Part shown: positions 25,901 to 58,950 of the stretch, in pieces
How positions within the stretch are numbered: the first letter of the stretch is position 1
Layout: each line of letters starts with the position of its first letter
Source: Nemertoderma westbladi
Taxonomy: Eukaryota; Animalia; Xenacoelomorpha
Assembly: GCA_032718475.1 (NCBI GenBank)
Contig: JAUCBJ010006956.1
Coordinates: forward strand, 1-64,000
Direction: 5' to 3'
DNA length: 64,000 nt
The notes under the pieces: generated by a model
What the model saw: only the letters and a program-made list of their open reading frames with translations
Databases searched by the model: none
Told to the model about the DNA's origin: nothing
Made by a program: the position numbers and the translations under genes

Positions 25901-28265
25901 GCTCTATATACCAGCCAAGCTTACCCGTCGTGAGCTCTTGAGGGTCATTTCCTTTGTATTTGACCCTTTAGGATTAATTTGCCCTTGGACTTTGAGAGGG
26001 AGACTCCTATTACAAGATTCATGGAAATCAGGGAAGGGATGGAATACTCTGGTAGAACCAGAAATTGAACATTCCTTTAAATTATGGGTCAATGAATCCT
26101 TAACTACTAATGTTGTTGAGTTTCCACGTTGTATTAACTTAAGTCCAACTACTACCTTACATATTTTCTGTGATGCTTCTATTCTTGCTTATGGCTTCTT
26201 GATCTATGTTGTTAATCCAAACTCTATACCTTTGCTATTCTATGGCAAATCTCGTGCAACGCCTTTAAAACATAGACCATCAATCCCAAGATTGGAACTA
26301 TTGGCTTGCTTGCTTGGTGCACGATTTGCTAATCATATTGTTATGAAACTTTTCAAACCATTTAACACATTCTTTTGGAGTGATTCCTGTTGCGTACTAC
26401 AATGGATACGTAAAGGACCTACAAAAAAGGATATCTTTGTCCACCGGCGAATTGAGGAAATTAATGGAATTGTTGACCCAGGACAATGGCGCTATGTTTC
26501 TACTCTTGAAAATCCTGCCGATATTCCTTCAAGGGGATCAAATTTATTACCCCTGTTATCTAACAAACTCTACCATCATGGCCCACCATTCCTATCTAAG
26601 GCAATAGATGAATGGCCAAAGGAACCATCACCTCCTCCTCAATTAATTATTATTGAAGCACCTCCAGCTTTGGATCTTGATGGATGTCTAGATATTAGAA
26701 AATATTCTAATTTTGTGACATTAGTTAATATAGTTTCATGGCTTTTACGATTTGTCAACAACTGCCGTAAACCTATTACGTCCCATAAGGAGTGCCTTTC
26801 ATTCGCCGAAACTAATTATGCGCTATTATTATTAATTAAGTCTGAACAATGGAAATGTTACAGGAGTGAATTTATGCATCTTCAGGAGCATTCCTATCTC
26901 CCTAGAACTTCTACACTCTGGCGATTTCATGCAGTAATTAACGATGGGATTTTGGTAATGTGTCCCCGCACCGGTGATTCGACACTCCCTATACTCCCTA
27001 AATCAAGCTATCTAACTCGTTTAATTATCCAATATTATCACAGTAGCCTGATGCATCAAGGCCCTGAAGCTACATTAGCTCTGATTCGTCAAAAATATTG
27101 GATTCCAAAAGGACGATCACTTGTTCGACACATAATACATGATTGCTATAGATGTAAACGCTATCAAGCTCAACCCTGCCAACCACGTGAGTCTCACCTT
27201 CATCCCTTTAGGATTACTGCTACAATGCCATTCTTATGTACGGGAGTGGATTTTTTCGGACCACTATACTTGTTTGATGGTGAAAAGGTATATGGTCTAC
27301 TTTTCACTTGTTCTTCCACACGTGCAATACACTTGGAGGTTGTTGAGGAAGCTAGCGCAAAACATACCCATCTTGCTTTTCGAAGATTCTTAGGTCGACG
27401 TCTCCCACCTATGTGGCATGTCAAGTTCTACTCAGATAATGCAAAAACTTTTTTAAAACTTTCAACTATGCGCTTTCCTTCCCACTCCATAACATTTACT
27501 TTCATACCCGTTCGATCTCCACACTGGGGCGGCTGGTGGGAAAGGATGGTAGGCATAGTAAAGAAATGTTTAAAAATAACTTGTCATAATCAAGCTTTTA
27601 CTCTCATTCAGTTGGTGACTGTATTTGTGGAAATTGAATCAGCTGTTAACAGCCGGCCAATTACGGCATTGTCCAGCGATCTGGATGATTCCAAACCATT
27701 AACACCATCTCATTTCCTGTTCTGTCATACTTCCGATACTGATAGTATTGACCCTGCAGCGACTAATTGTCCTGATAACCTACGTAAGGCTCTCTTACTT
27801 CGAGATAAGGTTTCACGATCTATTTGGAAACTATGGTCTACTGAATACCTTGCGTCACTAAAATGTTGGAGAACTCCCAGTCGAGGGACTAGTAATATAC
27901 CTGAAGTAGGTCATGTGGTATTGGTGAAACAAACTGGCAAAGTCCCAATTCCGCGAGGTAAATGGCCACTAGCACGTATATTGGCTTTACATCCAGGACG
28001 GGATGGATCAACATATTCAGCTGATATACTACTTAATGGTAAGAAGACGAACCGTGCACTAAACTACCTCATTCCTTTGGAATGTGATGTAACCTTTAAT
28101 GACACCCCTAAAGTTAATGATAGTGGCATACCCAATGTTATGGTTAGTGTCCCAGATCAACAAACTCGAAAGGACAAAACTGAAAATAACCTTAATTCTA
28201 AAGACAATAGGACTTATTATATTTCGAGATATGGGCGACGAGTAAATCATTTCAAAAACCCATAG
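22923..28265 (+). CDS. BEL/Pao gag-pol polyprotein (1780 aa)
   Basis: DUF1759-like PTFDGDYLLWRPFWDQF; Cys-His knuckles ending KKHHTLLC; protease YLDDGS; RT LYSDD; RNase H HIFCDAS...PRLELLA; integrase GVDFFGP/SDNAKTF/WWERMV; C-terminal WPLARILALHPGRDG. Confidence 0.97.
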   Translation: MSLPGSPTRNRGGKAAIGDDNEIRRRIEFLKRNRTTERTKAQKLITDIKVFWDQSEVDIDADELAYNIEVAEQYRKNLNTIDSELIELGYSVETSSYDRDLHKTIFKSTRVLNRVERAEQHTHSTTSEKSQSDSGGGAGTKGLPKISVPTFDGDYLLWRPFWDQFEALIHNRTSLTNIERFVYLRSCLVGDAKDSLGGLSLTATNYENAIALLKRRYGNPHLLIGMYASRLCALPIIQSNDLKGFRGIIDSFEAALREIQQLAIEITSPKSDGEMLSTDKGKSNDLTSLLLAPLLLQKLPVDMVLTWNRSHAVERFNLEPLLLFINTELESLESVAYGSSNSYTSTVGTTVRSSTHFNRKNASGSVASTTALYTSTMETSKKIVTKCPACKSSPVHSLRNCVGFLSKDIDQRCNIVKLTKLCKNCLGPHPTHLCTSEGTCSNCGKKHHTLLCFRSKGLIPTNKDSVGESASNKLPPSTSASKQASNDFTAKKSFSPKGPTNFYNNPSNSCVDTSKINNSRNNPIFIKLALGYITPPDSTEGYLIHIYLDDGSKRSYIREDLSTSLSLPSQDTHIMTTGSFGGYYTTQEADHVNFKLYSQFNSEPIDLSAWTTETLCPPMQQEYFHSLPPQLTHIQQWADIFDGGERTVSLIIGADYIWQVTNFIRTCPNMPAIIDTFFGTVLSGPAIGQQYNTPTSTDNVSMLITEPIEVTNLWNLEAVGVKGEELYCDPYIPPERSIEDPTHYRVRLPFKGTKRPISNYKIICRQQYHTMSKLNISEAEIYTTKMDKLWSDDIIELATSSHEEGFYLPHHLARRDTKPRVVFNGSSCDSAGISLNSCLDSGPNLLSNLVDILLRMRFYSHIITADIAAAYHQVEVHPEDRMWLKFLWKTNTYQFVRVPFGITPSGFLLHSTIQHHVNTYGNTEFVREFMESLYSDDVMKSSNNRHELNHFLQSAIELLQGAGMELKPVLNPKKILGVCLNNNNDTFSIDLSKLYIPAKLTRRELLRVISFVFDPLGLICPWTLRGRLLLQDSWKSGKGWNTLVEPEIEHSFKLWVNESLTTNVVEFPRCINLSPTTTLHIFCDASILAYGFLIYVVNPNSIPLLFYGKSRATPLKHRPSIPRLELLACLLGARFANHIVMKLFKPFNTFFWSDSCCVLQWIRKGPTKKDIFVHRRIEEINGIVDPGQWRYVSTLENPADIPSRGSNLLPLLSNKLYHHGPPFLSKAIDEWPKEPSPPPQLIIIEAPPALDLDGCLDIRKYSNFVTLVNIVSWLLRFVNNCRKPITSHKECLSFAETNYALLLLIKSEQWKCYRSEFMHLQEHSYLPRTSTLWRFHAVINDGILVMCPRTGDSTLPILPKSSYLTRLIIQYYHSSLMHQGPEATLALIRQKYWIPKGRSLVRHIIHDCYRCKRYQAQPCQPRESHLHPFRITATMPFLCTGVDFFGPLYLFDGEKVYGLLFTCSSTRAIHLEVVEEASAKHTHLAFRRFLGRRLPPMWHVKFYSDNAKTFLKLSTMRFPSHSITFTFIPVRSPHWGGWWERMVGIVKKCLKITCHNQAFTLIQLVTVFVEIESAVNSRPITALSSDLDDSKPLTPSHFLFCHTSDTDSIDPAATNCPDNLRKALLLRDKVSRSIWKLWSTEYLASLKCWRTPSRGTSNIPEVGHVVLVKQTGKVPIPRGKWPLARILALHPGRDGSTYSADILLNGKKTNRALNYLIPLECDVTFNDTPKVNDSGIPNVMVSVPDQQTRKDKTENNLNSKDNRTYYISRYGRRVNHFKNP

Positions 28266-31496: not shown

Positions 31497-33102
31497 TGTT
31501 GCCGTTATCCCAACACCAGGGGGGAAAAACGCCGATGCTGGAGACGTGACTTTACAGACCACTGAGCCCCGGCCAGTCACCGGATATTGATTTTGGAGAA
31601 GGAATGATTTCTGAGATGCAGGGTTGCGGTTGAGAAAAAGCTGCATTAGTTGGATATACTCTTTAATGTAACTGAACTCTGTTGAACCTTGTTGAAACCC
31701 TGATTAAGAATAATTTTGGGCTTCCCCAAATCAATATACACCAAATATTCACAATAATTATACACGATAATATAAATCCCTACAGTATATTATTTAATTA
31801 CCCACTGTTCGCTCAGATTTTAGCCTACCTAATGTTCCCCAGATTTTCCCTCGGTCCTAGTCTTAGTGCCGTAGTGTCGGTGTCGGTCGACCCTGTCGCG
31901 TGTCCGTTCCACCCCTCACGAACCCCGAAGGGAACGATCATCGAGAACCAGCACGGCTTGGCTAAGGGTCGGTCCAGTCGGTAGACTCTGTCGCGTATCC
32001 GTACCACCCCTCTCGAACCCCGAAGGGTTCGGTCATCGAGAACCAGTACGGCTTGGCTAGGAGTCTGCCGTGTCGGTGGACCCGTTCGCGTGTCCGTTCC
32101 ACCCCTCACGAACCCCGAAGGGTTCGATCATCGAGAACCAGAACGGCTTGGCTAGGGGTCCGTCGTTTCATCACAGAAACCCAACCACCTAGGCTTTCCG
32201 AGTCCCTTTCAGGCTCGTAGTCGCTTCGGCAGCCGAGAAACTGCTCCGAACAGTCGGTAGGCCAGTAGAGTCTAGTCGAGTCTAGTCCTTTGTCTTTCGA
32301 CCCCATCGCGTGTCCGTTCCACCCCTCACGAACCCCGAAGGGAACGATCATCGAGAACCAGTACGGCTTGGCTAAGGGGTCTGTCGTCGGTTCCCGTCGC
32401 AAATCCCAGTACAAGCAGTCAGCGTTCCGAGTTCTTTTCAGTCTCGTAGTAGCTGCCGTTGACCAGAGACCGCTAAGGGTAGTTCTCGTCAAACCCGTCC
32501 TGTGGCCAGCCCTTTCGCATGTCCGTCCCACCCCTCGCGAACCCCGAAGGGATCGGTCATCGAGAACCAGTACGACTTAGCTCAGGGGGCAGTCGTTAGT
32601 TGGCCACCCATTCGCGTGTCCGCTCCACCCCTCACGAACCCCGAAGGGAACGATCATCGAGAACCAGAACGGCTTGGCTACTAAGGGGCCGTCGTTTCCC
32701 GTCGCAAATCCCTGACACAAGCAGTCAGCGGTCCGAGTTCTTTTCAGTCTCGTAATGGCTGCTGTTGGCCAGGGACCGCTAAGGGCAGTCCTTGTCCTTT
32801 AGGCCTGGCGCATTACCAAATCCACCCCTACAGGCAGCAGGAAGTTGGCCAGGGCCTAATAGTACTCAGGCTAACCTGAATACTGCTTGCATTTTCCACC
32901 CCCCCCCCCCTGGCCCTTATAACTATGAAATTATTCCCGTACCCTGTAAGTTGCCCCAAAGTTCGCCCATAAATCGCCCCCAGTTTATTGAATGTGCCCA
33001 AAACCCATGGTCCCGCACCCAGTAGTAATATCGGAATAATCAATTTTAATAAAATACAAAAATATTCAACTCGCGTTATGGAAAGTTGAAATACCGCGAA
33101 CA
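31497..33102 (-). repeat. 3' LTR of element 2 (1606 bp)
   Basis: Matches 44251-45806 with about eight substitutions and indels of 1, 6, 39 and 4 bp. Confidence 0.97.
31889..32690 (-). ncRNA. Array of six ~82-89-nt structured RNA modules (kink-turn capped by a cUUCGg hairpin) in the LTR
   Basis: Conserved core TTCTCGATGAYCGWWCCCTTCGGGGTTCGHGAGGGG on the minus strand; each copy is closed by a different complementary basal stem. Confidence 0.7.
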
Positions 33103-33111
33103 GTCCCCCCC
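33103..33111 (-). promoter_or_regulatory. Polypurine tract of element 2
   Basis: GGGGGGGAC directly before the TG of the 3' LTR on the minus strand. Confidence 0.8.
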
Positions 33112-33267
33112 AATGACCTTCGTGAAGTCTGTCGGTCGATTGAGTTTGCGTAGGTCATTCCCAATATAAAAAACCCAAATTTAATATTGCATAGTTTTTA
33201 ATTAATTTGGCCTAGAGTTTGTATAAAAATAAATGTTCGATAAATGTTCCTGGAATATCCCGATCCA

Positions 33268-35868
33268 CTATTTCTTTCTCTGATACGCCTTTCGTCTCTT
33301 CGCCCGTCGACTCTCATCGATCGCTATGGCTGGTAGAGGAGCGTCCACATCCATCGTGAGTAACGCTTCGGCTTGTCTCCTGGCGGCTCTTCCTTTCGAT
33401 GGCATAGGGATCATGTCGGTTCGTCTTTCCAACTCAGACTTGCGTGTCTCTAGGAACCACTCTCCGTCACCGAACTCCTCTTTATACGAGTATAATCGTC
33501 TAATGACTTCAAATGGACCGAATAATCCGGCGCTCAGTAGCAGATCCACGTAATGGAAAGGTAGCGTGGCCGACGTGTGAAGGCGTTCCGGGAAGGAGAA
33601 ATATCCGCACGCCATCTCCTGCGCGATATTCCGAGCGTTTCTCCGAACCTTGGTCTTTAAGTGGCTGTTTGCGTATGTTTCAAACATGACCATATTTCCC
33701 ATAGCGGTAACGTCTTTGGTTGGACATTTGATATAGCAGCGGGGGCTAGATGAATGTCCACGGAAACCGCACGTGGTGCAGAGGTTATAAAGGATCGGAC
33801 AGACGGAAACATCGTGGCCCGATGTCGCGCAGTATGGGCAATAGAGTATCCCGAGGAGCTGGAGGCATGAATCGGTAACCCGATTCCTTCTGCCGCGTGG
33901 GCACTGCTCCGAACCACAGTCGCCGCATACCTCCAACTGCATCTCTCGACCAGGAAATATCGGAATCGGGACGCCGACGTAGTATTCGAGTCGTCGGTCG
34001 CTCTTCGGAATATTCTCGGTGGTCGGTAGCCCGCGGAATGCTAGGCTTTTGCGTAGTAGGTTCTCGCTCCGATAACCTTCTTTGTGTCCCGCTGGTCTTA
34101 ACTCGGATGACCGTTTCTGGTGGTGGATCCATTCAGTTTGCTCGGCGTACCAACGGGTTAGTCGCATAGGGTCCTGAGGAATGGCGGGTGTAGTAGCCAC
34201 CGCTGGTCGGCGAAGAGGTGCCGGGGTTTTAGACGGAGGGATACCGAGGAGATCGTCGGGGGTCGGCGCATCGCTGGGGCCCTCCTCGATCAGTATCGCT
34301 GCGCGGGTCCGTTGGTGGCTGGTACTCGGAATCTCCGACGACCAATCTTCGCCACCCGGGAAAGGATACGGGGATAACCGTTGGCATATGTCGCCGAAGT
34401 CGCTCAATGCAGCTGTAGTGGCTACCTCCCTCGCGGGGCTACCGGAGCCGCGTGGGGTGTAAACGCCTGCTCTCTTCATCGGTTCGGCTGAGGCAACCCG
34501 TTTGGCGGCCGGTCCATACGCGGCCTCCGGCTCGAGTTGTCGCTTCGGGGTGGAGAGTAGAACACCCTCGTTTAGCCATATCTCTTCCCCTTCCGAGGAG
34601 ATCAGAGGCTCCTCCGCACCGAGAAGTTCGGTAATCGTAGGGATGTCGTAAGGTCCGCTCTCGTCCCAGGAATCGATAACGGCGAGCGTTTTAGTCTCTC
34701 CCGGTGCGATGTTCTCGACCGCTTTGAATGCGTGGTGTATGACCTCGTTCCAGTCGTAGTCGACGAAGGAAAGGGGGACCGCCGTAATAAGGTTATCGAG
34801 AGTTCTACAGATAAACTTAGCGACGGTGTAGCATTCCATAACGACGTAAACGTAGTTCCGTCGATCGGGATTCTCCCATCTTTGGTGTATCGTCCACTTC
34901 CGATCAACGTCCTTCCATCGACCCTCTCGCTCGCTCTTTATTTCTAATCCCGGGTATCCACCGTATATTTTATTATAGTCCCGGAATTTCTGGGGTTTGA
35001 AGTCGATACCGCCGTTGAGCACAGCGAGGTAGCCGATCCCTGATTTCGTCGGTCTCACCTCTTGGAATCCTCGCATGAACTCGGCGAATCGTAACCAGGC
35101 TAGTAGCGTTTGAGTGTCAATGCAATGGCTAAGGGCGTTGAGGTCGTCTCGTCGGTTTCTTCCTGCAGGAGCGTTCGCGTAGTCGTTCCGGACGTCCGCC
35201 TTGATATCCGACCCGATTTTAATGACGTCGAAGTCGAAGAGGATCTTTTGGATTTCCGGAGGCAGCAACCAGATCGCTCCGGCTGCCTGCACTTCCTGTC
35301 TGGGTGTCGGGAATATTCGGCACACCAGTACCAAACCGTCCAGGGTTCCGAGGACGACGACTAAGGATCGACCGTATTCTTTCGCCCCGTACTTTTCCTG
35401 GTAGTCGTCGCGGTTTTGGATAATCGATACGCGTTCCTCTCGAAGCGTCGCCGTACACTCCGACAGGTTTCCCCAGTGGGCGAGGTACGTACTCTTGTCG
35501 TCGACGAAACTTTGACATCTCGCCAACGTAATCGCTTTCGAGGTGGGCGTCGCGTTTCCCTCGTTGTCGTAGATCAAACATCGGGATCTGTAGACGCTCT
35601 GCCGGAACGTTTCCCAAAACGACGAATCGTCCCCTCCGGTTGCCTTTGCGTTCCGAGTTCTTTTCAGTCTCGTACTAGCATCGGCTAACCGGAGGGCTCG
35701 TAGATTCTTAGAATCCGGTCCCTCTCGCCCGGTGAATTTAATGACTCGCACGTTCTCATTTAGCAGGGTGCTCCAATTTGTATCGAAGTCAGGGGATCCG
35801 GGTTGCGAATATTCCAGTAGATCTGTCGTGTTACGTAATTCGCCGATAATTTGGCGATTTGGGTCCAT
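33268..35868 (-). CDS. Accessory ORF2 (866 aa): DEDDy-type 3'-5' exonuclease-like domain, low-complexity linker, CCHC zinc knuckles, basic C-terminus
   Basis: ExoI-like IYD101NE103; LPPEIQKILFDFDVIKIGSDIKAD225 (ExoII); CIDTQ; ExoIII-like RWENP...Y341VVME345; CPYCATSGHDVSVC and CTTCGFRGHSSSPRC; RRAKRRKAYQRKK. Confidence 0.8.
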   Translation of the reverse strand: MDPNRQIIGELRNTTDLLEYSQPGSPDFDTNWSTLLNENVRVIKFTGREGPDSKNLRALRLADASTRLKRTRNAKATGGDDSSFWETFRQSVYRSRCLIYDNEGNATPTSKAITLARCQSFVDDKSTYLAHWGNLSECTATLREERVSIIQNRDDYQEKYGAKEYGRSLVVVLGTLDGLVLVCRIFPTPRQEVQAAGAIWLLPPEIQKILFDFDVIKIGSDIKADVRNDYANAPAGRNRRDDLNALSHCIDTQTLLAWLRFAEFMRGFQEVRPTKSGIGYLAVLNGGIDFKPQKFRDYNKIYGGYPGLEIKSEREGRWKDVDRKWTIHQRWENPDRRNYVYVVMECYTVAKFICRTLDNLITAVPLSFVDYDWNEVIHHAFKAVENIAPGETKTLAVIDSWDESGPYDIPTITELLGAEEPLISSEGEEIWLNEGVLLSTPKRQLEPEAAYGPAAKRVASAEPMKRAGVYTPRGSGSPAREVATTAALSDFGDICQRLSPYPFPGGEDWSSEIPSTSHQRTRAAILIEEGPSDAPTPDDLLGIPPSKTPAPLRRPAVATTPAIPQDPMRLTRWYAEQTEWIHHQKRSSELRPAGHKEGYRSENLLRKSLAFRGLPTTENIPKSDRRLEYYVGVPIPIFPGREMQLEVCGDCGSEQCPRGRRNRVTDSCLQLLGILYCPYCATSGHDVSVCPILYNLCTTCGFRGHSSSPRCYIKCPTKDVTAMGNMVMFETYANSHLKTKVRRNARNIAQEMACGYFSFPERLHTSATLPFHYVDLLLSAGLFGPFEVIRRLYSYKEEFGDGEWFLETRKSELERRTDMIPMPSKGRAARRQAEALLTMDVDAPLPAIAIDESRRAKRRKAYQRKK

Positions 35869-36416
35869 ATTTACGATTATATCCGTTACAAATTAGTTCA
35901 GTTAATTATAAGTCCAGAAAGTCTGAAACTATAGCGATAGCAGAATAATTCAGTTTTTTATTTAATTCAGTTTATTAATAACATTGCTATATAGGCATCT
36001 ATCATCTTATTGCTAATACATTCAGCATTTACAGTTACTATAGCTATACATTAATATCCAACCAGTTTTTTATGACTTTTTTGTCCTTTTCTTTTTTCTA
36101 ATTCTTTTCTTTAGACCTTTTTATACCTTTTTTTTTTCTTTTTTCATTTCATTATTATTTCATCTCATTTAATTTATTTCCACATATTTCAACACATTTA
36201 TTTCCACCATTTATTTCACATTTATTTATTTCCACATCATCATTGGGTTTATAGCCCCCCGGCTATCATCATTGGTTATAAGCGCAGCACCAGGGTGCGC
36301 ATCATTTCATTTTCATCAGCATACGCGTCATCATTCAGGTTTATAGCAGAGTTGTCTGATCCTTTTCATCGTTTCCAACTATATTCAATCATTTTCTTTG
36401 GTTAATCTTTGTCGTG

Positions 36417-36842
36417 GAAGGGGTGTTACGCGGCAATCTGGGATCTACAGCTGGACTCGTTACACCGCCTACGCCCCAAACTGCGCACGTAACGGACAAT
36501 GAAGACGCTGGGAGTGAAGTCACGTGGATGCACCAGGGACCCACCAGAATAACACTCCCAACAACATAAAGCTCAGTCGACGAAGTCATGTGGGATGGGG
36601 TTACGCAACATTCTGGGATCTACAGCTGGACTTGTTACACCGCCTACGCCCCAAAATCCACGCAACGGTCCCACCAGAATAACGCGACTGAGAACATAAA
36701 ACCCTCTATCGTCGAAGTCATGTGGATGCACCATGGACCCACCAGAATAACGGGATAGAGGGGGTGTTGCGCGGCAATCCAGGATCTACAGCTGGACTCG
36801 TTACACCGCCTACGCCCCGAACTGCGCACGCAACGGACAACA
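36417..36842. repeat. Three ~80-bp internal direct repeats between pol and ORF2
   Basis: GGATCTACAGCTGGACTYGTTACACCGCCTACGCCCC core in copies at ~36420, ~36597 and ~36761. Confidence 0.85.
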
Positions 36843-37111
36843 TAACATACTGCAATGAATACAATGAATTCCACTTCAAATCTTTTCCATTTCCAATAAT
36901 CCAATATCGTAGGTCCTGATGACCAAAATCAGGGTAAACAATGCATAAACGACCCTGCGTCAGTCGAAACATCTGCAGGGTGACGCTGGACTCCACATAA
37001 CACACGAGGAAACACAAATACCATTGCGTGGTTACAGTTGGTTTAAGGGGGTCCATAATTCGTTGTCGATAAATCACAGTTTAAAAGAGTTTGTCAACAT
37101 GATGAGAAGGG

Positions 37112-37330
37112 TTACACGGGTTTGTAATTGTCACCAATGTCCACAGCAGGATCTTGAGTAGGGATCTTATCACCTCTCGTAGAATCACCGCTATCATTGC
37201 CTTCAAGAAGGCACAGCCTCTGGATAGGGCGTTGGTAGTGGCCCTTTGCCGTTCGTATCGTCACAGTCCTCGCAAGTCCGTCTTTGCTTGGGTGTATGGT
37301 CACGACCCGCGCCACAGGCCAGTGAACGCG
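37112..37330 (-). CDS. Frameshifted C-terminus of element 2 pol (integrase C-terminal DUF5641-like region)
   Basis: Alternative frame reads HWPVARVVTIHPSKDGLARTVTIRTAKGHYQRPIQRLCLLE, the canonical BEL pol end. Confidence 0.85.
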   Translation of the reverse strand, partial: RVHWPVARVVTIHPSKDGLARTVTIRTAKGHYQRPIQRLCLLEGNDSGDSTRGDKIPTQDPAVDIGDNYKPV

Positions 37331-40300
37331 TCTTTGAGATCTTCTTTAACTAGTACCATGTCGCCAATTGCGACGTTCCGGTAGGTGTTGTTCCATTTCC
37401 TCCTGGTCCGGAGGGTTATGAGGTACTCATGGGCCCAAATTCTCCACCAATGCGCTGCCAACGCTTGGGCCTTTTTCCAGTTTGTATGTTTTGTGATCTC
37501 GTTGGGATCCGGGAACATGGTTTCCGGGAGAACGTGGGTTTTGGGTCTCCCCAGTAAGTGGTTAGGAGTGAGGGGCTCCAGGTCTGTGGGGTCGTCGCGG
37601 ATAGGGACAATAGGTCGGTTGTTCAGGGTAGCCGTGATCTCGCAGAATGTTGTGCGGAGGGTGTCATGGGTTACCCGGGTATCGCCTAGAGCGACGCGCA
37701 TGGATCGTTTCACTAGGTCGATCAGTTTCTCCCATACCCCGCTCCTATGGGGTGCTAAGGGGGTCTGGAAGTGCCACTGTATCTGGTGTTCCTTCCAGAC
37801 TTGGGATGCGGTGTTATCGGTAAACCATCCCTCGATCGCCTCTCTAAGTTCTCTTTCTCCTCCCACAAAGTTTGTACCATTATCGGAATACATGTGGCGG
37901 CATGTCCCGTTGTTCGCCACGAACCGACGCAGAGCGTTGATGAATGCGTGTTGTGTCAGATTTACCACGATATCTAGGTAAATTGCCCTAGACCTTAGGC
38001 AGGTGAAGATGGCTCCCCAGCATTTGATGTTGGATCGTCGTTCAATAACCGTGAACGGTCCGAAACAGTCCACTCCGGTGACGTAGAATGGTGGGGAATC
38101 CGCTTGTAGACGGGTGGCTGGTAAGTTGGCCATCTTTTGGGTGATTGGTGGCGCTAGGTAACGTCTGCAGGTGAAGCAACGTTTCAACACTTTCCGGATC
38201 AGTGGCTGGATGTGGGTGATCCAATATCTTTGTCTTATATTAGCTATAATCCAATTCTGTCCTGCGTGGTGGTTGTCCTCGTGACATTGTAGAATTAATA
38301 GCTTAGCTAGTGTCGACGTTCCGGGCAGAAGCGCCGGGTATTTAACCTCATATTCGACCGGGGCGTTTGCCATCCGGGTATTCAGTCGGATCAGTCCGTC
38401 CTCTCCCATCATTGGTCTCAGTTGGTAGACTGGGCTGTCCGGTTTCAACGTTTTGCCCGCACTAAGTTGTTCCCATTCATCGGGGAAACTTTCTTTCTGG
38501 ACATATCTAACAATACACTTCTCCGCGATAATGAGTTCTTGTATATTCCGTTGAACTATCGGTTTGTTGTTTTTCCACCGTAGGAAGTTGCGAAGTGTTA
38601 TAACGTGGTGGACGAGCCGTCTCATGGATGAAGTTCGCTCGATCAACCGATGTAAAGATGCCGCTAGTTGAGTGATCGTCGCGACGTTATAGTGCCTGCC
38701 CGAGTCCTTTGCAGGCTCAGTCAGACAACTATAAATTTCCACCGCGTTGCTTCGATGGATTTTACGGATCTCTATATCGTCCTCGGAGTATTTTCCGCTA
38801 TCGAGCTCGGGGTCGAATCGGGTACTCCATGTTAACTGTGGCTGCCGTAGGAATTCCGGGCCTGTAAGCCAGAGTTTACTTTTACCGAGTTGTTTTGGGG
38901 TGGCGCCTCGGCTTGATAAGTCCGCTGGGTTTTCCTTCCCGTTCACGTGATGCCACTGTTCTCGGCCGGTACACTGTTTAATCTCCGTGGCTCGGTTTGC
39001 AACAAATGTGGTGTGACGCCGTGATGGAGAGTGGAGATAATAGAGAACTATACTCGAATCTACCCAGAAGTGTTGAGATTCTATGGGGATCCGTAGATTC
39101 CGCATGACCATGCGATTCTGTCTTACTGCCCAAACTGCAGCTTGTAGCTCGAGTCTCGGGATCGTTGCTACGAATTCCCCGGATACTGTCTTTGCTTTGG
39201 AGAATAAGAAGCTTGTATCGCTGTTTCCATCGTTACTTAGTCTCCGTAGGAAGGTGACTACGCCAATTCCGGTATTCGAAGCATCCGAAAATGTGTGGAG
39301 CTGGAAGATATCGGTGGGCAATTTATCGAGGAAGAACGGTCTAGGTATCCGCATAAGATGTAGGTGTTCGAGCTGCTCCGTCCATTTTCTCCATTTGACG
39401 CTGAGGTATGGGGGGAGCTCTTCGTCCCATCCCAGTCCTTCTATCCACATTTCCTTAATCAGGTTCATTCCGGCCAAGGTTACTGGAGATATGAAATTTA
39501 GTGGGTCGAAGATGGCGCTTTTTAACGACAAACATCCCCTTTTTGTCATAGGCTTGGGTAGGGGTTTATATTTGAAGATGAATTCGTCTGATTCTATGTC
39601 CCATTCAATCCCAAGTACACGATGTTCCACATCCTCCGAATACATTTTGTTATTTTCCAGCCGGATGTCCTCCGGAAACTTTTCCATAAGTGTTTTGTCG
39701 TGGGATCTGAACTTCACGAGCGGAAACCCTCCTTTCTTCAGACATTCTACCATCCCCATTGCTAGCCGATATGCCTCATCCACATTATCCGCGGCGGCGC
39801 ATCCGTCGTCCACATAGAAGCATCGTTGAATGGTTTCTATGACGGTTGGAGGGAACTCGTTTTCGCACATAGTTGCTGTCCTCTTTAGCATGTCACTGCA
39901 TGCTACCGGCGAGTCCTTAGCGCCGAAGATCCTGACGACCATACGCATTACGTCTACGTCCTTGATCGTGAGTTGGCTAATCTCCTGTTGAGTAAGCGTT
40001 TTATCCGTCCATAGGATACGTAGACAGTCCGAGTCTCTTGGTAACGTACGAACTTGATGAAACATGGCCTTGATGTCACAGGTGAATGCTACCCGGTTTT
40101 CCCTGAACCTGATCAATACGCCGATGAGTGTACTATATATGTTGGGTCCCGTGTAAAGCTGACTGTTTAGGGATTCGCCCTGGTACATAGCGGCAGCATC
40201 ATTTACCACTCGGATTTTCCCACCTTTGCGGGCTTCTACTACATAGTGGGTTGGGAGATAATATGTTCTTTCACCACCTTGCAGTTCATTCCGTGGTACC

Positions 40301-43300
40301 ATTTCTGCTAATCCATCATCGAGATATCCTTGGATTACGGTATTATATTTCTCCTTTATCTCGGGTTGGTCATTCAGCCGGCGTAGAATCCCTTTAAGTC
40401 GCCTAAGTGCCATGCTGGCGTTGTTTGCCATTGGTTTGTTTGGATCCTTCCATAACATAGGTGAACACCAATGTCCGTCTTTAAACGTGGCCTGGTCGAG
40501 AACGTCCATACAATATTGGTCCTCTTCGGATGGGTTTTCGTCCTTTTCCGCGAACTCCTGGGTCTCCAAATTAAAATATTTCGTCATCTCTCGTTGGGTT
40601 TTCTCGGTTTCCAGAAACAAATCCTCGTCAAGATCCGAAGCTGAGCAATAACCCACAGAGGTTACATTCTCTTTAATCTGACATTTAGGAAGGTAGGTAT
40701 AGGTGTCCGTAGTTTCCTCCTTAATGCCGCAGAGTGTCCATCCCATTATTGTTCGTTCAGCATAAAATCCATCATCCTGGTTTATAGATCGAGCGATATC
40801 TCCGGTGGGGATGTGTAGTTCCGGTGTATCAAGTCCGATCAGTAGGGTGATACGGTTCACGTCCAACTGCGGACACCTCAGGTCTACATCGTCTCGGTCC
40901 AATTGTATGAGGGGGGCGTACTCGGCTGATTGTCGGAACCGCACCCGGAGGTCTGTGTGTACCAAGGCGTTCTTGATGGTTAACTTAGCCGTTTCGTAGC
41001 CCTTCATCACTCCTTCCATCTGGAGTTGTACCTCCCCGGACTCTACTTCTCTGTTATCGGTGATGGTTTGTATGGGCCGTTTACAAGGTTCATATTCTAG
41101 GCCGAGTTGCTCGAGGAAATCCCGGTCGATGATGGTTCCGTCAGACCCGTTATCGAGGAACGCGAGTGTCGTCAAAGATTTGCCGACTCCTTGGATCCTT
41201 ACTGGGATTACCTTTGCGAAAACCATGTAGCGGCGATTTATAAGATTAATCGTGGCCGAAATATTGGTTATTTGTGGTGTATCGGTGGAGATTTTAAACG
41301 GGTTGGTTTCTCTCCGTTGGGTTGTCCGGGTTCCTTTGAAGATGTGGTTTGTTTCTCCTCTTCGCCTGGCTTCGATCCGAAAGGGGAGGGTAGTAAAATC
41401 GAAGTTCGCGGGGATGTGGAGGAGCGTGTGATGGCGTTGGTCGTTACAGACAGCACAGCATGATCTTTGGTCGCACTCCCGAACATAGTGACCTGTTCCA
41501 AGACACCGGAAGCATCCTCGGTGTTTCATTATCGCCTCGAAGCGTGGGACGAGTTCGGCGAACTGAAACTTTCTGCAGAATTCCACTTTATGTTTCTCCC
41601 CACAGAAGAGACAGAGTAGGGAATTTGTGGTGCCTTCCCTTTCGGGTGCCCAACTCGCGAGATAACATGCCCATTCCTCGGCGGATGTCGGTTCCTCGTA
41701 GTCTTCGTCGTTGGAATCCTCGGCCATGGTGATGGCCATCGTACTCACTGGTGGGGGGCGGAATCTCGGTTTCGGAGGGGTTATCTTACTCCTGGAGTTG
41801 CTCTCTATTCCGTCCAACTTTGCGAGACTCTGTTTTGAAAACATCGAGTCATTCATGGCTTCGGAGATATCGTCCAGGAATGCCGACATTTCAAGGAAGC
41901 TAGGATCTCGATCTGGATGTCTGCGCCGGAGATCTACACATTTATAAGCCCACTTACTTTGTAGCCATCCGGGGAACTTCTTGGCGATCTGTCGGAGGTT
42001 TAGAATGTTGTTCACCTGGTCCTCCTTATTTAAGGGTTTCAGAGTATAGTAGGCATCCTTCATAGAGTCGGAGAATTCCTGTATGTTCTGTGGGTCCCCT
42101 AGTGATCCCGCGTCCTGTATCAGTCTCTCTAGAGTTTTATTAATTATAGTTCCGGTATTTCCGTATCTTTTATCCAGAGTTTTCCATGCGTCATAGTATG
42201 CCTCATGAGAACCTCCTTCAAAACATGCAATAATTCTGCGTGGTTTGTCACCCAGGTATTGCGATAAATATACCAATTTCTGTGCGTCGGCTATGTCCGT
42301 TGATCCGATCTGCGCAAAGAACCGTTTCTTGAATCTGAGGTAATCGACGGGATCTCCTTCGAAGGTGCGAATCTCCATCTTAGGCATGGCAAGGCGGTTC
42401 TCCAAAGCCCGGATGATGCTGACGTCGTCTGAACTGGAGTGACTCGGAGGGTTATAGTTATTGGCACTCACTCCCATACTTGATGGATCAATAATAGGTG
42501 GAGTTTTAATAATGACGCGGCTACGAGTTTGTGGTGTTGATGTAAATGGGTTGTTCGATCGGGGAGTGGCGTCCCGTTCCGAGTCCTTTTCAGGCTCGTA
42601 CTTGGGTACACTCGCTGTCGTGGTGTTGGATGGGAAATAAGGTTCCTCATTCTTTAGCGTAGCCGGTGGGGGATGGAACACCGGGGCTTGTGCCGATAGC
42701 GTAGACTGTTTGGTAGGCGGGATCTCGGGTTTCGGAGGTTTCGCCGCTGTTGGTGTAAATGACTTTTCTAACTCCGGTACCGGAATTGGTTCATATTCCT
42801 GATCTATATCCCTTTCCCAGTCCTCGTAGAGTTGAATATCTCGTTCTATAAGTGCGGCTTCATATTCTGCGAGTTTTGCAATATCCGCATTCTTTTTGTG
42901 GATGAGAATTGCTTGGGCCTCGGCGTGTTGTTTACGCATTTCCGCTTCCCATTTACGTTGTTCGATCTCTCGTTCGGCCTCTCGTCCGCGTTGTTCGGCC
43001 TCCTGTTTGCGTTGTTCGGCCTGTCGTTCGTCCTCTCGTCTATGTTGTTCGGCCTGCCGTTCGGCCTCCTGTTTACGTTGTTCGGCCTGCCGTTCGGCCT
43101 CTCGTCTATGTTGTTCGGCCTCCTGTTCGCGTTGTTCGGCCTGCCGTTCGGCCGCTTGTTCGGCCTCTCGCTTTTGTGTTTCGGCGGCTAATACATCTTG
43201 CTCGGCTTGCAGTTGAATATACTCATCTTCCATCCGAGCTTTGAGGGCTAATGCCTTCCGTTCTCGCAGTTGGTCTCGGAGTGGCGGCGCCCCTTGAGAA

Positions 43301-43812
43301 CTGCGCGCTGAGCCGGATATCTCGCTCCTAGCGCTGGAGTGCTGATTTCTAACGGACCCCGTTCTCTTTCGATGTACTGCTGTCCTGATGCTGGAGGATC
43401 GTACTGATTCCGCGTCTGTTCTTTCAGCCCTCTTGTAATACTGTTCCTCATAGCCTCTCACAAGGCTGAGGGTCCTCCGGTGTTGTTTGCGGAACCCATC
43501 TAGATGTACAACGTGTTCTTCCAACTTGGGGTAGTTTTCCAGATCGGTGGGGGGAACGAGCTCTTGGTACGCCTGTATCATTCTTTCGTACCGCTGTAGG
43601 ATATTTCGGATACTTTGAAGCTGAGTTTGTACCTCATTGAGGGGGGTTTTGACTCCCTTGAGTTGTTTCTCCATCCGTTGATACGCTCGGGTTACTCCGC
43701 CTTTAAGAGCCCCTAACCGACGGGTCATGTTCTTGACGTTTGGTACCTCGTCGTCTTCCGAGTCTGTGTGGTGATCCATCTCGTCGGTATCGGATACGTT
43801 ATTTGTTGTCAT
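37300..43812 (-). CDS. BEL/Pao gag-pol polyprotein (2170 aa to the premature stop)
   Basis: Gag with EQ/R-rich coiled-coil repeats and three Cys-His knuckles (CLFCGEKHKVEFC, CFRCLGTGHYVREC, CAVCNDQRHHTLLH); protease FLDNGS; RT FYVDD; RNase H FSDAS...PRLELQA; integrase GVDCFGP/SDNGTNF/VWEKLI. Confidence 0.97.
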   Translation of the reverse strand: MTTNNVSDTDEMDHHTDSEDDEVPNVKNMTRRLGALKGGVTRAYQRMEKQLKGVKTPLNEVQTQLQSIRNILQRYERMIQAYQELVPPTDLENYPKLEEHVVHLDGFRKQHRRTLSLVRGYEEQYYKRAERTDAESVRSSSIRTAVHRKRTGSVRNQHSSARSEISGSARSSQGAPPLRDQLRERKALALKARMEDEYIQLQAEQDVLAAETQKREAEQAAERQAEQREQEAEQHRREAERQAEQRKQEAERQAEQHRREDERQAEQRKQEAEQRGREAEREIEQRKWEAEMRKQHAEAQAILIHKKNADIAKLAEYEAALIERDIQLYEDWERDIDQEYEPIPVPELEKSFTPTAAKPPKPEIPPTKQSTLSAQAPVFHPPPATLKNEEPYFPSNTTTASVPKYEPEKDSERDATPRSNNPFTSTPQTRSRVIIKTPPIIDPSSMGVSANNYNPPSHSSSDDVSIIRALENRLAMPKMEIRTFEGDPVDYLRFKKRFFAQIGSTDIADAQKLVYLSQYLGDKPRRIIACFEGGSHEAYYDAWKTLDKRYGNTGTIINKTLERLIQDAGSLGDPQNIQEFSDSMKDAYYTLKPLNKEDQVNNILNLRQIAKKFPGWLQSKWAYKCVDLRRRHPDRDPSFLEMSAFLDDISEAMNDSMFSKQSLAKLDGIESNSRSKITPPKPRFRPPPVSTMAITMAEDSNDEDYEEPTSAEEWACYLASWAPEREGTTNSLLCLFCGEKHKVEFCRKFQFAELVPRFEAIMKHRGCFRCLGTGHYVRECDQRSCCAVCNDQRHHTLLHIPANFDFTTLPFRIEARRRGETNHIFKGTRTTQRRETNPFKISTDTPQITNISATINLINRRYMVFAKVIPVRIQGVGKSLTTLAFLDNGSDGTIIDRDFLEQLGLEYEPCKRPIQTITDNREVESGEVQLQMEGVMKGYETAKLTIKNALVHTDLRVRFRQSAEYAPLIQLDRDDVDLRCPQLDVNRITLLIGLDTPELHIPTGDIARSINQDDGFYAERTIMGWTLCGIKEETTDTYTYLPKCQIKENVTSVGYCSASDLDEDLFLETEKTQREMTKYFNLETQEFAEKDENPSEEDQYCMDVLDQATFKDGHWCSPMLWKDPNKPMANNASMALRRLKGILRRLNDQPEIKEKYNTVIQGYLDDGLAEMVPRNELQGGERTYYLPTHYVVEARKGGKIRVVNDAAAMYQGESLNSQLYTGPNIYSTLIGVLIRFRENRVAFTCDIKAMFHQVRTLPRDSDCLRILWTDKTLTQQEISQLTIKDVDVMRMVVRIFGAKDSPVACSDMLKRTATMCENEFPPTVIETIQRCFYVDDGCAAADNVDEAYRLAMGMVECLKKGGFPLVKFRSHDKTLMEKFPEDIRLENNKMYSEDVEHRVLGIEWDIESDEFIFKYKPLPKPMTKRGCLSLKSAIFDPLNFISPVTLAGMNLIKEMWIEGLGWDEELPPYLSVKWRKWTEQLEHLHLMRIPRPFFLDKLPTDIFQLHTFSDASNTGIGVVTFLRRLSNDGNSDTSFLFSKAKTVSGEFVATIPRLELQAAVWAVRQNRMVMRNLRIPIESQHFWVDSSIVLYYLHSPSRRHTTFVANRATEIKQCTGREQWHHVNGKENPADLSSRGATPKQLGKSKLWLTGPEFLRQPQLTWSTRFDPELDSGKYSEDDIEIRKIHRSNAVEIYSCLTEPAKDSGRHYNVATITQLAASLHRLIERTSSMRRLVHHVITLRNFLRWKNNKPIVQRNIQELIIAEKCIVRYVQKESFPDEWEQLSAGKTLKPDSPVYQLRPMMGEDGLIRLNTRMANAPVEYEVKYPALLPGTSTLAKLLILQCHEDNHHAGQNWIIANIRQRYWITHIQPLIRKVLKRCFTCRRYLAPPITQKMANLPATRLQADSPPFYVTGVDCFGPFTVIERRSNIKCWGAIFTCLRSRAIYLDIVVNLTQHAFINALRRFVANNGTCRHMYSDNGTNFVGGERELREAIEGWFTDNTASQVWKEHQIQWHFQTPLAPHRSGVWEKLIDLVKRSMRVALGDTRVTHDTLRTTFCEITATLNNRPIVPIRDDPTDLEPLTPNHLLGRPKTHVLPETMFPDPNEITKHTNWKKAQALAAHWWRIWAHEYLITLRTRRKWNNTYRNVAIGDMVLVKEDLKDAFTGLWRGS

Positions 43813-44000
43813 TGTAACGCCTCGTCGATGGCTAGATACGCGATGTCGTAAAACAGTTCCCCGTAGGTATTGTACTCAGCTTGGACCACCCGAACAGTAA
43901 TCCTGAATCGTCCGACGTTCGTTCCTTGTACTTCAACTTCGACGTGCCAGATTCCTGGCTCAACTTGAATTATATCAATGGGTGTGATCGATACTTCCAT
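43809..44000 (-). CDS. Small upstream ORF (63 aa) whose stop overlaps the gag start (ATGA)
   Basis: ATG start, protein-like composition, TGA overlapping the gag ATG at 43809-43812. Confidence 0.45.
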   Translation of the reverse strand: MEVSITPIDIIQVEPGIWHVEVEVQGTNVGRFRITVRVVQAEYNTYGELFYDIAYLAIDEALQ

Positions 44001-44250
44001 TCCCTGTTAACAACTCTCCAAATATGTGATCTGCCGACTACGAGTTGGTTAGATCGAGTTTGTTGATTAATTAAACCACGACTTTGTCTCAACTCAAATA
44101 CCAGAGTTTCCTCGTAGTGGGTGCTGGCAAGCACATAGAGAGTTTTGAAGAGTATTGAAGGATTCTCAACTTCCACCAGTTGAAGTTGACCGTAATTATT
44201 CTTAATTTTGACACCCTGTCAAAATTAACCGCATTAATTATTCTTAATTT

Positions 44251-45806
44251 TGTTGCCGTTATCCCAACACCAGGGGGGAAAAACGCCGATGCTGGAGACG
44301 TGACTTTACAGACCACTGAGCCCCGGCCAGTCACCGGATATTGATTTTGGAGAAGGAATGATTTCTGAGATGCAGGGTTGCGGTTGAGAAAAAGCTGCAT
44401 TAGTTGGATATACTCTTTAATGTAACTGAACTCTGTTGAACCTTGTTGAACCCTGATTAAGAATAATTTTGGGCTTCCCCAAATCAATATACACCAAATA
44501 TTCACAATAATTATACACGATAATATAAATCCCTACAGTATATTATTTAATTACCCACTGTTCGCTCAGATTTTAGCCTACCTAATGTTCCCCAGATTTT
44601 CCCTCGGTCCTAGTCTTAGTGCCGTAGTGTCGGTCGACCCTGTCGCGTGTCCGTTCCACCCCTCACGAACCCCGAAGGGAACGATCATCGAGAACCAGCA
44701 CGGCTTGGCTAAGGGTCGGTCCAGTCGGTAGACTCTGTCGCGTATCCGTACCACCCCTCTCGAACCCCGAAGGGTTCGGTCATCGAGAACCAGTACGGCT
44801 TGGCTAGGAGTCTGTCGTGTCGGTGGACCCGTTCGCGTGTCCGTTCCACCCCTCACGAACCCCGAAGGGTTCGATCATCGAGAACCAGAACGGCTTGGCT
44901 AGGGGTCCGTCGTTTCATCACAGAAACCCAACCACCTAGGCTTTCCGAGTCCCTTTCAGGCTCGTAGTCGCTTCGGCAGCCGAGAAACTGCTCCGAACAG
45001 TCGGTAGGCCAGTAGAGTCTAGTCGAGTCTAGTCCTTTGTCTTTCGACCCCATCGCGTGTCCGTTCCACCCCTCACGAACCCCGAAGGGATCGATCATCG
45101 AGAACCAGTACGGCTTGGCTAAGGGGTCTGTCGTCGGTTCCCGTCGCAAATCCCAGTACAAGCAGTCAGCGTTCCGAGTTCTTTTCAGTCTCGTAGTAGC
45201 TGCCGTTGACCAGAGACCGCTAAGGGCAGTTCTCGTCAAACCCATCCTGTGGCCAGCCCTTTCGCATGTCCGTCCCACCCCTCGCGAACCCCGAAGGGAT
45301 CGGTCATCGAGAACCAGTACGGCTTAGCTCAGGGGGCAGTCGTTAGTTGGCCACCCGTTCGCGTGTCCGCTCCACCCCTCACGAACCCCGAAGGGAACGA
45401 TCATCGAGAACCAGAACGGCTGACACAAGCAGTCAGCGGTCCGAGTTCTCTTCAGTCTCGTAATGGCTGCTGTTGGCCAGGGACCGCTAAGGGCAGTCCT
45501 TGTCCTTTAGGCCTGGCGCATTACCAAATCCACCCCTACAGGCAGCAGGAAGTTGGCCAGGGCCTAATAGTACTCAGGCTAACCTGAATACTGCTTGCAT
45601 TTTCCACCCCCCCCTGGCCCTTATAACTATGAAATTATTCCCGTACCCTGTAAGTTGCCCCAAAGTTCGGCCATAAATCGCCCCCAGTTTATTGAATGTG
45701 CCCAAAACCCATGGTCCCGCACCCAGTAGTAATATCGGAATAATCAATTTTAATAAAATACAAAAATATTCAACTCGCGTTATGGAAAGTTGAAATACCG
45801 CGAACA
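44251..45806 (-). repeat. 5' LTR of element 2 (1556 bp)
   Basis: Matches 31497-33102; module array at ~44636-45420 with one module truncated by a 39-bp deletion. Confidence 0.97.
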
Positions 45807-47510: not shown

Positions 47511-49088
<1,578 letters not shown>

Positions 49089-50753: not shown

Positions 50754-51152
50754 GATAAAACTAATACAGTAATAGGCCTAAATTATGTGAAAGGTATATC
50801 CACATTTTAAAAATCCTGCAATCCAGTTTGGCCTATCAATTATTTAAAATTTATTAGCACAACCGGTAGGCCTACCATTACCGTATTTAAATGGTAGGCT
50901 ACACAGTAGGCCAATAGCAGTACCGGTGCCGGTACCGGTACTAAAATACAGAAATACCTGCTTTATACCTTCATCTGTACATACAATACAGCAAAATAGT
51001 GCTATATATACTAATACCGGTACTGATAGCCTGAGAGAACAGCAGTAGAGAAACGAAAAAAAAGGACAAAAAAAGGATTTAAACGGACAATAACAATTAT
51101 TGCGGGCGAAAAGTTAGGGACAGAAAGGTCATGGCGGCCCGGGTGCACTTTT

Positions 51153-52970: not shown

Positions 52971-53100
52971 ACATTGATAGAAAGGGTGGTGCAAATAACA
53001 TTGAGTTAGAAATACTGTAAGATGTAGAATGACTATTCAAACTTTATTTATTATTAAGCAAAAATACATAAATTAATAAATAACATTATTATAACAATTG

Positions 53101-58944: not shown

Positions 58945-58950
58945 TATGTA

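Follow-up and report, generated by a model that had tools for sequence, protein, structure and literature searches.

A bulged hairpin repeated in the LTRs and three coding linkers of a BEL/Pao retrotransposon from Nemertoderma westbladi

The window analysed here, i.e., the whole 64,000-nucleotide stretch of the Nemertoderma westbladi contig JAUCBJ010006956.1, carries an LTR retrotransposon of 14.3 kb on its minus strand (31497..45806; all features given below lie on this strand), which was delimited by LTR alignment and flanks and matches the Pfam families PF05380, PF03564, PF18701, and PF17921. The flank and LTR alignments place its ends at a 5-bp target-site duplication (AGTAT) and at LTRs of the form TG...CA. 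The 5′ LTR (44251..45806) was recognised by alignment with the 3′ LTR (31497..33102), which has a polypurine tract just before it (approximately 33103-33112); the two differ by 8 substitutions and 4 indels, one of them of 39 nt, and the retrotransposon is young. Between them lies a gag-pol ORF (37300..43812) with the domains DUF1759, Peptidase_A17, integrase H2C2, and DUF5641 in BEL/Pao order, and judged by this domain order together with the LTRs and their target-site duplication, the element is a member of BEL/Pao. This gag-pol copy is broken in the integrase tail, as the frame ends there and the DUF5641 match covers profile positions 2-50 of 94 only.

Downstream, ORF2 (33268..35868) encodes 866 amino acids that comprise a 3′-5′ exonuclease-like domain, a linker, a Cys/His finger module, and a basic tail. 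Profile comparison assigns to it an RNase D/EXD2-like domain (DEDD 3′-5′ exonuclease): the ORF2-family profile matched the solved structures of Egalitarian (Egl) and EXD2 at E values of about 1e-4, and an atlas lead pointed to PF01612, with a score of 0.92 and a share of 34 % among the members of that cluster. ORF2 alone had no match in Pfam or in the PDB, word-indexed searches gave 0 and 1 matches, and alignment-based scans of viral contigs gave no confirmed locus. One alignment places a D of an IYDNE motif, with a long insertion, at the first exonuclease motif, another shows this motif missing, and two AlphaFold models reached mean pLDDT values of 32 and 39. This exonuclease/zinc-finger ORF2 family also sits after BEL/Pao pol in other genomes and is little described; a literature search covering few subscription papers found nothing on an exonuclease ORF in BEL/Pao. 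Some nematode Cer elements have an exonuclease domain.

The LTRs furthermore carry arrays of K-turn-like units with a C(UUCG)G hairpin cap, six in the 3′ LTR (31890..32682; starts at 31890, 31985, 32080, 32300, 32509, and 32606) and the same six, found by sequence pattern, in the 5′ LTR (44637..45429). All 12 units show the K-turn sequence pattern (a 3-nt bulge followed by G·A and A·G pairs), with covariation no better than in shuffles (361/500), and the minimum-energy fold adopts a competing register. Standard box C/D-type K-turns (PMC5061560, PMC5689011) share, at the level of sequence pattern, the 3-nt bulge and the G·A and A·G pairs, as well as a non-Watson-Crick 3b·3n position such as that present in all six units, but differ from the units described here in that these form an LTR array, have a C helix with two G·U pairs, and are predicted to adopt the competing register. 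The unit is absent from the coding regions of the element, its exact pattern had no match in viral contigs, and a literature search covering few subscription papers found no report of K-turns in LTR retrotransposons.

A second repeated structure, which is the subject of this report, is a short hairpin that occurs nine times, always in sense orientation. Each LTR holds three copies, and gag, pol, and ORF2 hold a single copy apiece. By a 23-nt pattern and LTR comparison, the LTR copies were placed at 32197..32219 (copy a), 32426..32448 (b), and 32732..32754 (c) in the 3′ LTR, where two of them are interleaved with the K-turn-like units, and at 44944..44966 (a), 45173..45195 (b), and 45440..45462 (c, with the loop GAAG) in the 5′ LTR. 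The gag copy (42578..42600, codons 426-433) lies in a linker, the pol copy (38700..38718, approximately codons 1719-1726; long stem 38680-38745) in the linker between RNase H and integrase, and the ORF2 copy (35634..35694 with its long stem, core 35652-35674, codon 65) near the N-terminus; spacing over the internal region is about 3.9, 3.0, and 2.9 kb. The initial annotation had already noted the 27/27 identity between LTR 32422-32448 and ORF2 35648-35674, the 23/24 match between LTR 32196-32219 and gag 42577-42600, and a further LTR copy at 32732-32754, all of which hold; the last of these is identical to the 23-nt core. Its list is to be extended by the three 5′ LTR copies (44944, 45173, 45440) and the pol copy at 38700-38718, and the outer ORF2 stem that it placed at 35634-35693 is indeed present, with its end at 35694.

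Within the window, the 23-nt pattern has 8 matches (none in any of 100 shuffles), and a shorter apical pattern has 9, including the pol copy with 0 mismatches, against a chance mean of 0.03. A descriptor of the geometry only, which was composed after the copies were already known, gave 8 sense and 0 antisense matches (shuffle mean 0.15). The covariance-model scan that had been proposed at the outset, with a model built on seven of the nine copies, recovered all nine and no other match in the window below E 0.7. Outside the element, an Rfam search gave no convincing family (best E values 2.5 and 4.1), the exact pattern had no match in viral, metagenome, and prokaryote collections, and a literature search covering few subscription papers found nothing on the hairpin itself. 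The hairpin is lineage-limited, since it was absent from all five loci of distant relatives that share the ORF2 family.

The predicted fold consists of a 4-bp stem, a bulged A, an A·A or C-G position, a C-G pair, and a UGNAAN tip, the last in eight of nine copies, with GAAA changed to GCAA in pol. Beneath this apical hairpin, eight copies have a loop-E-like 5×4 internal loop, in place of which the pol copy has base pairs. The initial annotation had described the repeat as a loop-E/sarcin-ricin-like GAAA hairpin. This emphasis is borne out for the 5×4 loop and for the exact AGUA/GAA sequence with predicted flanking stems, which is, as it had stated, confined to the gag and ORF2 copies; it does not extend to the bulged G, which only these two of the nine copies have, so that by sequence and predicted stems the six LTR copies and the pol copy lack the bulged-G/loop E motif (AGUA opposite GAA between helices). 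In its three-dimensional form, the motif further involves non-canonical pairs and a base triple. According to these predicted folds, what the copies have in common is the apical bulged hairpin, and loop E is not invariant. In the sarcin-ricin loop (SRL), one base pair separates the bulged-G motif from the GNRA loop, whereas in the hairpin seven pair positions and one bulge separate internal loop and tip, and a scan for the sarcin-ricin geometry on both strands of the element gave 0 matches. The likeness to sarcin-ricin/loop E consists of AGUA/GAA in two of the nine copies and an S-turn-like 5×4 loop in eight. Viroids are among the RNAs described as carrying a loop E motif (PMC12382478).

Several observations suggest that it is the RNA on which selection acts. 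Across seven copies, 90 % of cells pair, and two of ten pairs changed on both sides and three on one side, counts that reflect few events given the common history of these paralogous copies; the shuffle figures of this comparison are not to be taken as probabilities. Each coding copy sits on an outer stem unrelated to those of the other two. Synonymous recodings that folded equally well numbered 0 of 3000 for the ORF2 site, 0 of 3000 for pol, and 91 of 3000 for gag. When 78-nt windows were ranked against synonymous recoding, the ORF2 site came first of 283, and the top three places of 433 all went to the sites in pol and gag. Shorter windows of 60 and 72 nt cut through the ORF2 site, which was then not among the ranked windows listed. 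For five of six sites, the sense strand gives the better fold, with a margin of 6-13 kcal/mol at four of these, while at the gag site the antisense fold was better under one window choice. Such predicted folding above codon-preserving controls supports selection on RNA structure. Among the variants listed (40 of 417), 32 map to ORF2; its hairpin contains none, but with an expectation of only about 0.8 this absence is uninformative.

In a comparison with 45 BEL/Pao homologues, identity amounts to 3-4 % and gaps to 64-67 % at the sites in gag and pol, the pol site being the lowest-conserved of 54 windows, and the ORF2 hairpin lies upstream of the portion that the homologue profile can match; going by these alignments, the coding copies are located in non-conserved protein linkers. 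A cause at the peptide level, namely the EPxKDS shared by gag and pol (found in one other of 136 stored proteins), was rejected, as the ORF2 copy is read in another frame. The peptides TRLKRTRN and YEPEKDSE that had been given for the ORF2 and gag copies are correct, and the third frame would hold a UGA stop; with two reading frames and non-coding DNA in use, a peptide cannot explain the repeat. The RNA-level signal originally put forward is favoured by sense bias, pair-preserving variation, unrelated outer stems, and folding beyond synonymous recoding in three linkers; of the roles first suggested for it, packaging, localisation, and ORF2 binding are all candidates.

As to what this signal may do, the reading that we prefer, at slightly less than even chances, is that a protein encoded by the element, most likely Gag, docks at the hairpins dispersed along the RNA, which would thereby be marked for packaging. 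Nine bulged stem-loops are predicted to fold on the sense RNA of the element; a protein of the element, presumably Gag, would bind them, and the RNA so bound would be marked for ribonucleoprotein assembly and packaging. The coding copies probably stem from the LTR motif, copied during reverse transcription, and may have been retained at protein-tolerant places. In several RNA viruses, dispersed stem-loops with a common protein-recognition motif are described as a packaging mechanism (PMC6281560), and multiple motif-sharing stem-loops are likewise found along this element. The examples in this source (MS2 TR-like signals, picornaviruses, HBV) resemble the present case in having stem-loops with a common tip and a bulged A genome-wide, coding regions included, but here the hairpins lie in an LTR retrotransposon, are few and closely similar in sequence, and capsid binding is only putative. 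In Ty1, on the other hand, the packaging region is reported to fall within the initial 580 nt, and localisation to require neither POL nor the 3′ UTR (PMC4974528), a layout that by analogy would count against packaging by dispersed hairpins. A subgenomic ORF2 RNA would also bear four copies, which fits packaging poorly. Further points against docking are the absence in the five relatives, the GAAG loop of 5′ LTR copy c, and a common family variant at 32206, present at 17 % of depth in X1, at 25 % in X3, and in the sole X4 contig, that appears to leave LTR copy a with a mismatch in place of the U·G pair closing its loop.

A clearly less probable but still appreciable alternative is that ORF2 or an adaptor of the host recognises the hairpin as a signal for transport or export, either of the Rev/RRE type or like the Egalitarian-bound signal of the I factor. 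Rev/RRE, Rex/RxRE, and Rec/RcRE are the export systems of complex retroviruses; they share with this element an accessory ORF and structured RNA in LTR and coding region, but each RNA is a single large multi-branched element, and ORF2 is unrelated to Rev-type proteins. Genomic RNA and ORF2 RNA would each hold several hairpins, and the ORF2 protein combines Cys/His fingers with a tail of basic character. The best solved structures for the ORF2-family profile are Egalitarian (E 5.7e-5) and EXD2 (E 1.2e-4), a match that reflects the common exonuclease fold only. The domains ED1, ED2, and XAD, which Egl signals use, were not seen in ORF2. In most relatives, the first exonuclease motif is occupied by either an acidic residue or DxE, which suggests an enzyme. 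The signals that Egl binds, among them the I factor ILS, are described as bent stem-loops with 3′-strand bulges, and one transcript uses two elements for Egl-BicD (PMC13186709). Like the ILS, the hairpin is a stem-loop with a 3′-strand bulge in retrotransposon coding sequence, and it too occurs more than once per RNA. According to the same source, these signals are variable in sequence and require a pair of A-form helices, each 6 bp or longer, around the bulge, with U-A pairs at two fixed places, whereas the hairpin is sequence-conserved, G+C-rich, and broken by its loop-E-like 5×4 loop, with 2-3 pairs above the bulged A in the predicted folds. In addition, ORF2 is kept in all five relative loci, yet the hairpin is missing there.

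It is rather unlikely that the hairpins are functionless by-products, i.e., that a stable LTR hairpin was spread by template switching and survived in tolerant linkers. The identity of the ORF2 and LTR copies over 27 nt suggests recent copying, every coding copy lies in an unconstrained linker, and LTR units have been gained or lost, as seen in the 39-nt LTR indel and in the X6 contig, which spans almost the whole LTR and skips 716 nt of the array. However, out of a 1.6-kb LTR it is one short segment that recurs at three coding places, and the commoner K-turn-like unit recurs at none; the outer stems of the coding copies are unrelated to one another, and the differences are mostly pair-preserving.

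Still less credit is given to RNA-RNA tertiary contacts of the GNRA-receptor or T-loop type, by which the hairpin tips would compact or dimerise the genome while the K-turn units bend the LTR array. The UGNAAN tip in eight of nine copies and the replacement of GAAA by GCAA in pol would suit such contacts, and the variable last loop base is compatible with the extruded nucleotide that T-loops have. Against this, the 11-nt GAAA receptor is made of two half sequences, which are nowhere adjacent in the element, and the loop lacks self-complementarity, so that a kissing dimer is not expected. A further point in favour is that K-turns often point a short stem-loop at a receptor (PMC5061560).

An improbable reading is that of a DNA site, in which inverted CGAG/CTCG half-sites 11 nt apart would bind a dimeric protein as an enhancer: three copies per LTR are a frequent pattern for enhancer repeats and the half-sites are inverted and spaced, but the spacer is conserved and paired, G·U pairs function on the sense strand only, the half-site change in pol retains an RNA wobble pair, and DNA binding has no need of long flanking stems. 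Least probable of all is a sarcin-ricin mimic acting as decoy or recruiter for elongation factors, the unlikely translation-factor decoy of the initial annotation, since, although in gag and ORF2 an exact AGUA/GAA loop lies below a tip resembling GNRA, the sarcin-ricin spacing is absent (the SRL geometry had 0 matches), the bulged G is missing from the six LTR copies and the loop from pol, and no Rfam family matched.

How LTR retrotransposons select and route their RNA depends on signals that, even in Ty1 and Ty3, are described as ill-defined (PMC4974528). A short, sharply bounded motif in three coding linkers and six LTR places offers a ready target for binding and probing, and it is accompanied by the ORF2 family, the arrays of K-turn-like units, and a candidate site for self-priming, all of which can be tested on short RNAs or domains. 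We regard it as a long shot that these form an RNA-handling system of the lineage's own, in which ORF2 would bind the hairpins, the K-turn arrays would recruit a host L7Ae-family protein, and Tf1-like self-priming would proceed without a tRNA; if true, the lineage would possess a system akin to Rev/RRE or a transport adaptor that it encodes itself, none of which was found described in BEL/Pao.

A tRNA primer-binding site after the 5′ LTR is typical, albeit not universal, for BEL/Pao. No TGG start of such a site was found after the 5′ LTR here, nor any tRNA gene in the 64-kb window; the relative L003 has a TGG primer site. A literature search covering few subscription papers found nothing on self-priming in BEL/Pao. 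At the primer-site position (44236..44248, +3 to +15 after the 5′ LTR), the sequence is the exact complement of LTR 44456-44468 and looks like a self-priming arrangement; this 13-nt complementarity was matched in 4 of 20,000 shuffles.

Nine sense-strand copies of one small hairpin are carried by the BEL/Pao LTR retrotransposon at 31497-45806 (minus strand), three in each LTR and one each in gag (42578..42600), pol (38700..38718) and ORF2 (core 35652-35674). The element is flanked by a 5-bp target-site duplication, and its two LTRs are 8 substitutions and 4 indels apart, which points to a young insertion. Its gag-pol ORF (37300..43812) contains DUF1759, Peptidase_A17, an H2C2 integrase domain and a partial DUF5641, the reading frame stopping within the integrase tail. 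The coordinates and identities that the initial annotation had given for copies in the LTR, ORF2 and gag were all borne out on re-examination, and a 23-nt hairpin pattern matched 8 times in the window and never in any of 100 shuffles. The pol copy, which had been missed, emerged both as a weak ninth match and as the highest-scoring window when gag-pol was scanned for folding in an unbiased way; it matches a shorter apical pattern exactly (0.03 expected by chance), and its folding z-score is -4.9 for the sense strand as against -2.4 for the opposite one. A covariance model built from seven copies retrieves all nine sites and no others below E 0.7. No Rfam family matches the hairpin and no description of it was found in the literature searched; as a kind, cis-acting stem-loops that recur within the RNAs of viruses and retroelements are known.

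Constant in all nine copies are GAG and CUG-N-A, parted by a position that varies, followed by G, a bulged A and CUCGG. In the seven aligned copies this position pairs C with G or sets A against A, with no mixed combination, and one contig of X4, a sequencing run holding variants of the family, shows the paired form in the context of LTR copy c, along with an extra base. Beneath eight of the nine copies lies an internal loop (5x4, type N-A-N-U-A / G-A-(A/C)-N); the outer stems further down are particular to each site and unrelated in sequence. Taken together, the readings in which a protein docks on the hairpin are probably correct. Within them we tentatively favour, by analogy with packaging-signal-mediated assembly as described in PMC6281560, a dispersed docking signal on the element RNA that Gag would recognise in RNP assembly and packaging.

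The next candidate after packaging by Gag, and in our view an unlikely one, is that ORF2 or a host adaptor reads the hairpin as a signal for transport or export. Searched against 1.84 billion representatives, ORF2 (33268..35868, 866 aa) gave 8 hits with E of 0.001 or less, which combine an exonuclease-like domain with a Cys/His module; the family has no significant Pfam match, and its profile finds Egalitarian and EXD2 as best matches, followed by a CCHC-containing protein and by zinc knuckles. The hairpin does not follow the Egl signal rules set out in PMC13186709 and is therefore not classed as an Egl signal. Among metagenome contigs, five of 46 pattern matches were confirmed as loci (L001-L005). 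The ORF2-like ORF comes after a BEL/Pao gag-pol in three of these (L003, L004 and L005); L001 is too short for a judgement, and none was seen ahead of the ORF in L002. In L003 the LTRs are short and there is a TGG primer site. The hairpin is absent from all five loci, so that ORF2 is both older and more widespread than the hairpin, which weakens the case for a fixed pairing of the two and leaves room for a recent one. The finger module is doubled in P0004 and in L001.

Neutral copying of the hairpin within the element appears doubtful. Whether selection acts at the RNA level was assessed at the coding copies. Those in ORF2 and gag were said to be read in differing frames, and two frames are indeed used by the coding copies, the third being closed by a stop. 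Of the 120 hits listed, 80 homologues reach 1700 aa; an alignment of 45 of them gave identities of 4.3% at the gag site (67% gaps) and 3.0% at the pol site (64% gaps), as compared to 26-49% in the main domains; the ORF2 site, at codon 65, precedes the stretch within reach of a homologue profile or BLAST. Given the peptide and the codon usage of the element, the hairpin core would arise by chance with a probability of 1.6e-5 in ORF2 and 1.1e-3 in gag, and synonymous recodings folded equally well in 0/3000 cases for ORF2, 0/3000 for pol and 91/3000 for gag. When each 78-nt window was compared with 20 recodings, the three sites came out best in their ORFs, the ORF2 site ranking first of 283 and the pol and gag sites taking the top three places of 433; windows of 72 and 60 nt cut the ORF2 hairpin, and its site is not among the windows listed at those lengths. 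As the copies are paralogues inside one element, they represent few independent events.

The predicted tip may be viewed as a GNRA loop with a U-A or U.G closing pair, which a variant at 32206 appears to break, although, with 40 of 417 variant rows listed, a change in the partner base is still conceivable; this variant accounts for 17% of depth in one run and 25% in another, and the sole contig of a third carries it. A six-base loop closed by C-G is compatible with every form observed. Tertiary RNA contacts are an improbable role for the hairpin, and a site acting as DNA is still less probable. The sense RNA folds better at five of six sites, at the ORF2 site by a marginal amount only, and the gag site folds better antisense in the folding window compared across strands. 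The definitions of sarcin-ricin, T-loop, receptor and Rev-type systems used here are general knowledge. The loop-E assignment of the initial annotation holds in part, as the defining G of the bulged-G motif is present in the gag and ORF2 copies and absent elsewhere, the pol copy having pairs instead, and a sarcin-ricin decoy is the least probable reading of all.

Interleaved with the hairpins in the LTRs are K-turn-like units, six per LTR (31890-32682 and 44637-45429), whose sequence is that of a standard K-turn as defined in PMC5061560, with a 3-nt GAU bulge, tandem G.A and A.G and a C(UUCG)G cap. Their 3b.3n position is U.U, C.C or C.A and never Watson-Crick; C at 3b is described as allowing ion-induced folding (PMC4382518), and box C/D K-turns as requiring protein in order to fold (PMC5689011). 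Covariation lends no support to these units and their minimum-energy fold takes a different register, and their identity as K-turns is thus a lead only. Like the hairpin, they are absent from L001-L005. In one contig of the run X6, 716 nt of the array are missing, so that a single K-turn-like unit and a single hairpin would remain.

No tRNA-type primer site occurs at the primer-site position after the 5' LTR. Starting 2 nt past the LTR end, 44236-44248 (+3 to +15) is an exact 13-nt complement of LTR 44456-44468, which lies 218 nt from the LTR end; composition shuffles produced such a match in 4 of 20,000 cases. ATTAAA follows about 50 nt downstream of the 13-nt LTR stretch, and TATAA lies close to the LTR start. 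By analogy with the self-priming known from Tf1/Sushi, Tcn1 and TAR elements (PMC6317226), a Tf1-like mechanism in a BEL/Pao element is possible. With such an arrangement the arrays would fall within U3 and therefore in the 3' UTR; the TATAA would put them in the leader instead. An 18-nt stretch containing the 13-nt complement is duplicated 42 nt further on (second copy within 44193-44210).

According to PMC3601003, BEL/Pao elements occur in metazoans exclusively. Many variants of the present family occur in DNA runs from three studies under one organism label, and part of the family also turns up in a fourth run, which bears a different label. The window holds a second, dissimilar BEL/Pao gag-pol ORF (22827-28265, plus strand, 1812 aa, open along its whole length), which neither the hairpin nor the K-turn-like model matches. 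Near the first element lies an intronless host gene, SRP54 (47511-49088, minus strand), very similar to the mammalian protein (E 1e-283); from this similarity and the metazoan restriction of BEL/Pao, the host is taken as an animal. Another host gene, PP4R3, is present as two open frames (13915-15036 and 17406-19088, plus strand) with an inverted-repeat element at about 16112-17250 between them. Sequences at 374-1291 and 3913-4840 form a near-identical pair about 3.5 kb apart; together with 5567-6322, 49798-50845, 51545-52998 and 58948-59710, these regions comprise several minisatellite arrays, with repeat units of 21, 68 and 40 nt, as well as a further inverted-repeat element. Within gag, tandem 21/33-nt repeats at 42940-43175 encode a charged, coiled-coil-like stretch. 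Between pol and ORF2, a third repeat family (36417-36840) consists of three 83-nt units with a nearly constant core and variable outer stems, which fold as long hairpins at -30 to -35 kcal/mol on the sense strand versus -20 to -28 kcal/mol on the other.
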